Of a stretch of 10,040 nucleotides of DNA, positions 4,175 through 4,370 are shown piece after piece. The notes under the pieces are model-generated. The model ran no database searches. It was not told where the DNA came from and saw nothing but the letters and a program-made list of their open reading frames with translations. The position numbers and the translations under genes are program-made. Source of the DNA: a virus; UHGV virus genome UHGV-0351092. One strand, given 5' to 3'. Every line of letters begins with the position of its first letter. The stretch's first letter is position 1.

Positions 4175-4306
4175 AGTCATATCTCCTGAACAAAATAATG
4201 GTTATGATTGCATAAACTGAAATGACGATCTACATCATTGCAATTTATGAAACGATAACGCATGATGATCGCGTTCTTCCCATTGACTTCAATCACCTGA
4301 AAAACA

Positions 4307-4338
4307 AAGCCCGCAACACTTCTGGCTGCGGGCTTTTT
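4307..4338. terminator. rho-independent terminator hairpin usable in both directions, with the stronger U-tract on the plus strand
   Basis: aagcccgca (4307-4315) and tgcgggctt (4327-4335) are exact reverse complements around an 11-nt loop. On the plus strand the stem runs into TTTTT (4334-4338); on the minus strand it is followed by TGTTTTT. Confidence 0.6.
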
Positions 4339-4346
4339 ACTGGCAC

Positions 4347-4370
4347 AAAAAAGCCGGGAAAAATCCCGGC
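4347..4370 (-). terminator. rho-independent terminator for the minus-strand FinO-like/PerC-like transcript
   Basis: gccggga (4353-4359) pairs with tcccggc (4364-4370) around an aaaa loop. On the minus strand the stem is followed by TTTTTT (complement of 4347-4352). Lies just 3' of the PerC-like stop at 4376. Confidence 0.6.

Follow-up and report, generated by a model that had tools for sequence, protein, structure and literature searches.

The virus genome UHGV-0351092 is considered here as a single stretch of 10,040 nucleotides (the window), read on one strand from 5' to 3'. Judged by its gene order, its iterons and the annotation of its relatives, it is a phage satellite of Escherichia coli of the phage-inducible chromosomal island (PICI) type, with the integrase and the attachment site outside the window. 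All island genes lie on the minus strand, in agreement with the annotation of the relatives. The gap between the early operon, which ends with a gene for a PerC-family regulator, and the late capsid and packaging operon holds two hairpins (Table 1). The first of these, hp2, directly follows the PerC gene, and the second, hp1, lies between hp2 and the late control region. The comparisons below point to a pair of back-to-back terminators at the early/late border, in which hp1 would stop divergent transcription on the plus strand and, in this window, would also back up hp2; I give this reading about an even chance.

The two hairpins in the window

Both hairpins were located where the initial annotation of this DNA had placed them. 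The stem of hp2 begins five nucleotides after the PerC stop codon (4376-4378), its U6 tail is present on the minus strand only, and it folds on that strand at -18.3 kcal/mol (z -3.6 against shuffled sequences). It reaches 38.8 on the minus strand in a d'Aubenton-Carafa-type score (d), which uses ViennaRNA energies and is approximate throughout. In the islands of class E, described below, an identical hp2 is placed after another gene (SSB). Its position and tail agree with the role assigned to it in the initial annotation, and hp2 is predicted to be the minus-strand terminator that ends the FinO-like/PerC operon. A consensus terminator scan never flagged it, despite its 7-bp GC stem and U6; in my reading this is likely because the G-T pairs allowed by the scan extend the stem into the T-run.

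Hairpin hp1 is found about 40 nt past the PerC stop codon on the minus strand. Its arms are complementary at 10/10 positions, and it is flanked by A/T runs on both sides, so that a transcript would end in UUUGUUUUU on the minus strand and in UUUUUA on the plus strand. The predicted folds have energies of -16.7 kcal/mol on the plus strand (z -3.0) and -20.9 kcal/mol on the minus strand (z -4.3), and the folds of both hairpins beat those of nearly all shuffled sequences. This is the layout of a bidirectional terminator, with an A-run 5' and a T-run 3' of one stem and a positive d on both strands. The hairpin had been credited with its best U-tract on the plus strand, which fails in the window: the minus-strand tail is superior to the plus-strand tail, d is 20.6 on the minus (gene) strand and 2.6 on the plus strand, and the scan flags the minus strand only. 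The number of terminator-like sites in the window is not raised (13, compared with 11.3 +/- 3.0 in shuffled sequences); hp1 and hp2 are credible because of their position, stability and conservation, and not because of the site count. No plus-strand gene converges on hp1, and only promoter-like sites point at it.

Table 1. Features of the window, those of the early/late junction first
Feature	Position	Strand	Details
hp2, predicted intrinsic terminator	4347-4370	-	stem 4353-4370 (GCCGGGA/TCCCGGC); U6 tail from 4352-4347
Spacer between the hairpins, recombination joint	4337-4352		flanked by a short inverted repeat, GGCTTTTT (4331-4338) and AAAAAGCC (4348-4355)
hp1, predicted symmetric intrinsic terminator	4297-4338	both	arms 4306-4315/4327-4336; minus tail UUUGUUUUU (4308-4300); plus tail UUUUU (4334-4338)
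Conserved box	4268-4296		between hp1 and control region; 77-86% identity in divergent relatives
Plus promoter candidate of the initial annotation	4238-4266	+	TTGCAA (4238-4243), 17 nt, CATGAT (4261-4266); start ~4273, RNA ~66 nt
Second plus promoter candidate	4229-4256	+	TCTACA (4229-4234), 16 nt, AACGAT (4251-4256); start ~4263, RNA ~76 nt; weak (approximate score 3.8)
Late-operon control region	4201-4259		two direct repeats TTTCAnnnnnTGCAAT on the minus strand (4252-4237, 4222-4207), forming an inverted repeat with 25-nt arms
Late-operon promoter candidate	4201-4228	-	TCGTCA (4228-4223), 16 nt, CATAAC (4206-4201)
Early/late intergenic gap	4181-4375
First late (capsid/packaging) operon gene, 57 aa	4001-4174	-	GGAG ribosome-binding site 4186-4183; RefSeq start 4174
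PerC-family regulator gene	4376-4663	-	last gene of the early replication/regulation operon; Pfam PerC E=2.2e-32; RefSeq annotation of relatives
FinO/ProQ-domain protein gene	4660-5202	-	relatives in RefSeq start at ATG 5190
Iterons	5380-5667		seven exact AAAGTGAGG copies
RepA-type helicase gene	5668-7080	-
501-aa gene	7923-9428	-
AntA-like gene	9421-9999	-

Conservation among close relatives

The class definitions used here rest on the loci fetched for comparison, of which classes A to C were retrieved via the 57-aa gene. Class A has both hairpins. In class B, hp2 lacks a clean U-tract and is joined directly to the late control region, with no hp1; in class C other genes lie in between. Both hairpins are 90-100% conserved within class A, compared with 76-81% for the perC coding sequence, and even in L024 and L025, where the latter figure applies, hp1 is 90-97% identical. 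One class A lineage (L013, L017) carries a compensatory change in the stem of hp1 from G-C to A-U, via a G.U/A.C intermediate. The pattern suggests that hp1 is under selection. As to the strand on which it would act, two class A lineages have wobble pairs that read G.U on the plus and A.C on the minus strand; in variant L096 of class E it is the other way round, and the hairpin of the control region favours the minus strand.

The hp1 cassette (~100 nt) occurs in 39 of 5426 complete E. coli genomes, essentially only in this context, and the perC region in 188 E. coli genomes. A mobile or phage-derived origin of the cassette was considered and rejected, as a search of phage records gave no meaningful match to it and as it is essentially confined to this context in E. 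coli. A scan of species-representative genomes yielded one locus, and a metagenome scan about ten more class A junction sequences, several of them truncated, together with chance matches. In the WP2-type lineage hp1 is decayed on both strands and the plus-strand -10 candidate has become CGTAAT, with the key A lost; these islands function with hp2 alone as terminator. The 55989-type islands keep the FinO-like and PerC genes with a degenerate hp2 and no hp1. In five class B loci (L040, L041, L043, L044, L047) a clean deletion, or non-insertion, of ~95 nt takes out hp1 and the conserved box, and the late -10 element is lost as well; the late operon of class B is probably read through from perC.

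The spacer between the hairpins is inverted in L025 (IMG/VR 2609460249_000008), apparently flipped between the 8-nt inverted repeats GGCTTTTT and AAAAAGCC. As a result the U-tract of hp2 is weaker there and the plus-strand U-tract of hp1 stronger (d = 19.4 on the plus and 14.6 on the minus strand).

The statement in the initial annotation that no plus-strand gene lies upstream of hp1 is confirmed, as the sole plus-strand open reading frame is not conserved. This frame (4222-4413; 63 aa, a hypothetical protein in some RefSeq records) has its ATG changed to ATA in many relatives, is truncated in L017 and crosses both hairpins. A plus-strand frame of 12 codons (4262-4300) was rejected too: L024 shows a change of frame, and the WP2 type differs in four changes, each of them non-synonymous in my reading. 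RefSeq lists further plus-strand hypothetical proteins across the control region (L005 1518-1733; L002 1102-1302), the frames of which are likewise not conserved: a deletion of 10 nt breaks them in four contigs of class C, and in class A the ATG is changed to ATA; these are probably mis-calls. Among the covariance models of Rfam 15 none reaches its gathering threshold in the window, the best being ncr1175 (32.1 bits, threshold 60) and isrK (17.6 bits, threshold 50), and the junctions of CFT073 and of class E gave no hit at or above threshold either.

Orientation of the second hairpin in other lineages

Three further PICI lineages, D, E and F, were reached through short sequence matches. They share with class A a junction composed of an upstream-operon terminator with U6, an A-run of 5-8 nt, the second hairpin, a control region and the late operon, and the control regions of these junctions are rich in TTTCAT and ATTGCA motifs. 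The junction comes after PerC in class D, and after the SSB gene and before the capsid genes in class E. Class F comprises islands of the type of EcCICFT073 and O-island 51 (OI-51) of O157; its junction was found in 593 of the 5426 complete E. coli genomes. A conserved plus-strand gene is present in none of the four lineages.

In classes D, E and F the second hairpin scores positive only as a plus-strand terminator, with d between -26 and 1.4 on the gene strand, where the run is U3-U4, and a run of U5-U8 on the plus strand. On the gene and plus strand, respectively, d is -1.4 and 20.7 in class D (L089), 1.4 and 37.6 in class E (L090), and, within class F, -0.9 and 13.9 in CFT073, -6.2 and 15.4 in O157, and -1.0 and 13.8 in ATCC 25922. 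The A-run of class F, which gives a plus-strand U-tract of 5-7 nt, is present in 63/63 unique sequences, with a T-run of only 4 on the gene strand; the loop varies and the stem is constant, the stem having been fixed by the search pattern. Classes A, D and F have the outer stem GCCCG/CGGGC in common and differ in the inner pairs, and class E is unrelated in sequence. The conserved orientation of the second hairpin therefore seems to be that of a plus-strand terminator, with class A as the exception that has gained a long U-run on the minus strand. The initial annotation had proposed an orphan plus-strand terminator, and hence a short plus-strand transcript; lineages D, E and F support this proposal, and the U-tracts of the window itself do not.

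In both families homology breaks off between the two hairpins, at 4344-4345 in the window and at the CFT073 junction, and partial matches in more than 100 genomes begin at window position 4344-4345. In ATCC 25922 and L100 a cos-like insert of ~220 nt, resembling a phage cohesive-end site, parts the hairpins, and the second hairpin retains its A-run beyond it. The breakpoints and the retained A-run place hp1 in the late module, with which it travels rather than with perC. The insert itself (1320-1500 in L101, from ATCC 25922, and 1320-1510 in L100) holds a lambda-like cosN motif, CACGGGGCGGCGGGGTCGCGG in L100 and a close variant in ATCC 25922, and is probably one of the cos sites of these PICIs, with terminators on both flanks.

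Late control region and candidate plus-strand promoters

Within the repeats TTTCAnnnnnTGCAAT of the control region lies the palindrome ATTGCAAT, which reads as a TTGCAA -35 element on either strand. It is found in the late control regions of every island class, in 1 to 4 copies, and may be an operator or a -35 element (TTGCAA) common to both strands; PerC and the 57-aa protein are guesses as to the factor that binds it. The inverted repeat at 4201-4259 was rejected as an RNA structure, because the number of ATTGCAAT copies varies from 1 to 4, with L049 keeping a single one, and a motif acting at the DNA level, as operator or promoter, fits this variation better. Inspection by eye found no late promoter dyad of the P2/P4 type (TGT-N12-ACA) and no lambda CII sites (TTGC-N6-TTGC).

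The late -10 element, which is CATAAT or TATAAT in most relatives, overlaps a -10 element on the plus strand, TATGAT (4203-4208), from which transcription would start at ~4215 and yield an RNA of ~123 nt. The late promoter may fire both ways, and -10 elements that are symmetric or nearly so drive divergent transcription in enterobacteria (PMC10268837; PMC12825309). In class F the homologous late promoter, TTGCAC-16-TATAAT, is present in 60/60 sequences and lies inside a perfect palindrome, GATTATAATC.

The promoter originally proposed for the plus strand, TTGCAA/CATGAT, exists in so far as the hexamers are there with a spacer of 17 nt, but its score is unremarkable. It agrees with the consensus at 8/12 positions, stays under the scan threshold and scores 8.6 on an approximate matrix, which was used for all promoter scores given here; 22 of ~100,000 hexamer pairs in the window are better, and ~2.4 sites as good occur per kb per strand. 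It also falls in the least conserved segment, 4253-4267, which is 60% identical in three divergent relatives. The second candidate, TCTACA/AACGAT, has the position of an element of classes E and F, TTGACT/TTGAGT-17-AATNAT. In class E this element reads TTGACT-17-AATCAT and scores 11.5, and class D has TTGCAA-16-TAACAT with a score of 10.4, both upstream of their terminators. The class F form, TTGAGT-17-AATGAT, is 40-47 nt distant from the hairpin, with the TTG, the A2, the T6 and the 17-nt spacer invariant in 60 unique sequences.

The three candidate starts (~4215, ~4263 and ~4273) would give RNAs of ~123, 76 and 66 nt with a 3' end at 4338-4340. The corresponding stretch of CFT073, from the second hairpin towards the late promoter, is at about NC_004431.1 complement(1,385,259..1,385,337), and would extend to ~1,385,400 with a start at the symmetric late -10 element. 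The plus strand folds between 4196 and 4342 better than 200/200 shuffled sequences (z -3.7). The conserved box would either serve as the single-stranded body of a short RNA from the plus strand or be the site of a weak promoter candidate on the minus strand, TTGAAG (4292-4287), 16 nt, GATCAT (4270-4265), of which the A2 and T6 of the -10 element are kept in all variants. As all plus-strand candidates stand back-to-back with the late promoter, the predicted RNA would be divergent from the late mRNA. It had been described as antisense to the leader of the minus-strand operon, which is not supported: the candidate plus-strand starts are all upstream of the GGAG site (4186-4183), and transcription from them would lead away from that site, so that only read-through from perC would be overlapped.

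Discussion

The hairpins, their tails, their conservation and the module to which each belongs are matters of observation, and they allow the following proposal. The early operon, with the replication, FinO-like and PerC genes, would end at hp2. The conserved job of hp1 in E. coli PICIs would be to stop plus-strand transcription that starts in the late control region (4200-4270), either at a separate weak promoter, at the near-symmetric late -10 element, or at both, and to keep it from running antisense into the early operon or, in some islands, into cos. The product would be a short non-coding RNA of ~65-125 nt with its 3' end near 4338. In class A the long U-run gained on the minus strand would have turned hp1 into a two-way terminator that backs up hp2 against read-through into the late operon. 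I infer the occurrence and the start point of plus-strand transcription from the orientation of hp1 and the promoter-like sites facing it. A discrete short RNA is plausible, with about an even chance in this window and a somewhat better one in EcCICFT073-type islands; a regulatory role for it is speculative.

Several points weigh against this proposal. In the window itself, hp1 is the top terminator-like site of the consensus scan on the minus strand, the only one on which it is flagged, and its marginal plus-strand value comes with a tail of U5. The plus-strand promoter candidates in the window are all weak or unremarkable, and the hexamer block of class F might just as well be an activator site upstream of the late promoter. 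Variant L096 of class E has a poor d on both strands, classes B and C lack hp1 altogether, and the terminator formula and promoter matrix are, as stated, approximations. Gram-negative PICIs have been described as transcribed one way only (PMC6092414). Literature searches found no published small RNA (sRNA) in E. coli PICIs and no published transcript evidence for PICIs or OI-51, the O-island review names none in OI-51, and the EcCICFT073 papers contain no transcript maps for the junction. For strain Sakai, I take Sp7 to be the counterpart of OI-51. No Hfq-bound orphan site labelled Sp7 is given for Sakai by Tree et al. 2014.

It could also be that the two hairpins are simply tandem terminators of the minus strand, with hp1 as a backup or insulator for the FinO-like/PerC operon, its A-run aiding termination, and no plus-strand RNA at all. 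The better minus-strand score of hp1 in the window (20.6 compared with 2.6) and the single direction of all annotated genes are as this explanation would have it. Class B, which lacks hp1 together with a clean hp2 U-tract and the late -10 element, fits it as well, if the missing piece is seen as a cassette made of a terminator plus its own promoter, an alternative to read-through. However, the hairpin of classes D, E and F is followed by no more than U3-U4 on the gene strand, with d no higher than 1.4, but by U5-U8 on the plus strand, the A-run is kept in all 63 class F sequences, hp1 moves with the late module and not with perC, and WP2-type islands manage with hp2 alone; I consider tandem action alone rather unlikely. 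Much the same junction might serve the DNA rather than its transcription, the hairpin and the A/T tracts acting in packaging (in association with cos), in replication or in recombination. The joint between the hairpins is indeed a recombination breakpoint, hosts a cos-like sequence in some islands and is inverted in L025. Nevertheless, with A and T runs directly adjoining a GC-rich stem the hairpin has the standard layout of a terminator, its loop varies freely while the stem is kept, and neither the window nor CFT073 has a cos-like sequence here (no lambda cosN match in the window with up to 2 mismatches), which leaves a DNA-level function highly improbable.

The presence of a FinO-like gene ~320 nt away, pointed out in the initial annotation, is real: the encoded protein matches Pfam ProQ (E=6.7e-25), NCBIfam FinO (2e-18) and ProQ (1.4e-16), and in PDB ProQ (1.6e-12) and FinO (4.2e-11), and relatives annotate the gene as ProQ/FINO. 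Proteins of this family bind terminator hairpins and contact most of their ligands via terminators (PMC9977716), and the A-rich 5' flank, stem and U-tail of hp1 are typical of such ligands. A module like FinP/FinO, in which a plus-strand antisense sRNA ending at hp1 is stabilised by the FinO-domain protein and represses the late operon, would be an attractive consequence. The protein and the hairpin do not co-occur, however. An ortholog of the FinO-like gene (77-98% amino acid identity) is present in 48/48 related loci and hp1 in 24/48 of these; of the class E and F loci scanned, 101/103 have the orphan terminator and no FinO homolog, and 2/103 encode a FinO-like protein. FinO is found without hp1 in classes B and C and together with a terminator of this type in classes A and D, and the perC region is present in 188 genomes against 39 for the hp1 cassette. 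With distributions this independent, the link between the protein and the RNA made in the initial annotation finds no support. The predicted RNA is moreover clear of the late ribosome-binding site and the likely late leader, and a base-pairing target for its body (4273-4305) was rejected, since its complementarity to the translation starts of the island is not exceptional, 64% of shuffled sequences being as good. A FinO partnership is unlikely, and a full FinP/FinO-like module seems to me very improbable indeed. The FinO-like protein might instead stabilise its own transcript by binding hp2, and hp1 after read-through, as the 3' end of the FinO-like/PerC mRNA. Binding of mRNA 3' terminators is common among ProQ/FinO proteins (PMC9977716), hp1 comes with an A5 flank and a U-tail when read on the minus strand, and both hairpins are better conserved than the perC coding sequence. 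On the other hand, 55989-type islands keep both genes while hp2 is degenerate and hp1 absent, class B does without hp1, and hp2 recurs unchanged after SSB in islands that have no FinO, so that this possibility is very unlikely as well.

Back-to-back terminators at the early/late border, the reading that I prefer, have parallels in known systems. Bidirectional or convergent intrinsic terminators likewise consist of a GC-rich stem with an A-run and a T-run, here paired back-to-back with a one-way terminator; they normally lie between convergent genes, whereas here the opposing unit, on the plus strand, would be non-coding and short. Divergent non-coding transcripts are the expected by-product upstream of bidirectional promoters (Warman et al. 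2021; PMC10268837, PMC12825309), and the late -10 element is nearly symmetric in a similar manner, in the form of GATTATAATC in EcCICFT073-type islands and of CATAAT opposite TATGAT in the lineage of the window. Unlike such by-products, the predicted RNA would end at a conserved terminator of its own at a distance of 65-140 nt, and this points to selection for containment of the transcript. FinP/FinO of F-like plasmids, and also FopA/Inc RNA, resemble the present case in that a FinO-domain protein is encoded beside an RNA candidate with a terminator hairpin and a U-tail. FinP, however, overlaps the ribosome-binding site of traJ and co-occurs with FinO, in contrast to the RNA considered here, which overlaps no late ribosome-binding site and whose hairpin is distributed independently of the protein. 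The lambda OOP RNA, Sar of P22 and the P4 CI RNA are short, terminator-ended RNAs in regulatory junctions of mobile elements, transcribed opposite to the main direction, as the candidate would be. These RNAs have been demonstrated and overlap their targets (the P4 CI RNA being processed from a leader), whereas the present one is a prediction from sequence.

The hairpins as such are ordinary terminators, and the useful result is the comparative one: where early and late genes meet, E. coli PICIs conserve a terminator opposing all annotated genes, and EcCICFT073 and OI-51, both in experimental use, are among them. A short plus-strand transcript is thereby predicted for elements whose transcription has been described as one-directional. 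Should the transcript be only a contained by-product, it would illustrate the way in which modules recombining at this very joint are insulated in mobile elements; should it regulate, an RNA layer would be added to the biology of satellites and helpers. That E. coli PICIs, EcCICFT073 and OI-51 of O157 among them, carry at this junction a conserved, unannotated regulatory sRNA gene, divergent from the late promoter and with its own plus-strand terminator, is unlikely; such an RNA might act on the helper phage, on the host or, within the island itself, on read-through from early to late genes or on the accessibility of cos. The tempting pairing of FinO and an sRNA is removed as unsupported.

Island context

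The assignment of the window to the PICIs agrees with the published description of these elements (PMC6092414): the genes are in a one-directional order, with regulators, a primase/helicase with an iteron origin, PerC and a packaging/capsid module, and matches to Pfam and PHROG include no lysis or tail genes. RefSeq annotation of near-identical islands gives the same gene set, and PICIs carrying PerC have been described before (PMC11773190, PMC6092414). The 57-aa first late gene has no match in Pfam, NCBIfam or PHROG, and its identity with RgdR is excluded, as RgdR has 99 aa. The late module that follows it encodes a 195-aa protein similar to the C-terminal part of phrog_6216 (an uncharacterised phage protein family), a DUF2213 protein with an additional match to the profile of a head-maturation protease, and a protein with a helix-turn-helix that is similar to a small terminase or to Rpp. 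Between 2647 and 3970, the 195-aa protein and a 223-aa protein match the C-terminal and middle parts, respectively, of the single 545-residue profile phrog_6216, with the 223-aa protein also matching a head-maturation protease profile; the two may be the separated halves of a protein that other elements encode in fused form.

An AT-rich non-coding region (5203-5667), which separates the helicase gene from the FinO-like gene, contains the AAAGTGAGG iterons in both orientations and a near-perfect inverted repeat of 40 nt (5574-5613), and is probably the replication origin of the island. The relative A17, an E. coli strain that like UMNF18 carries this island, has an additional gene of 774 bp in the matching region. 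Just upstream of the FinO-like start, the minus strand holds an open reading frame of 16 codons (5208-5258; MKTECCVSAVGQRSNQ) with an AGGAG ribosome-binding site, which may encode a leader peptide.

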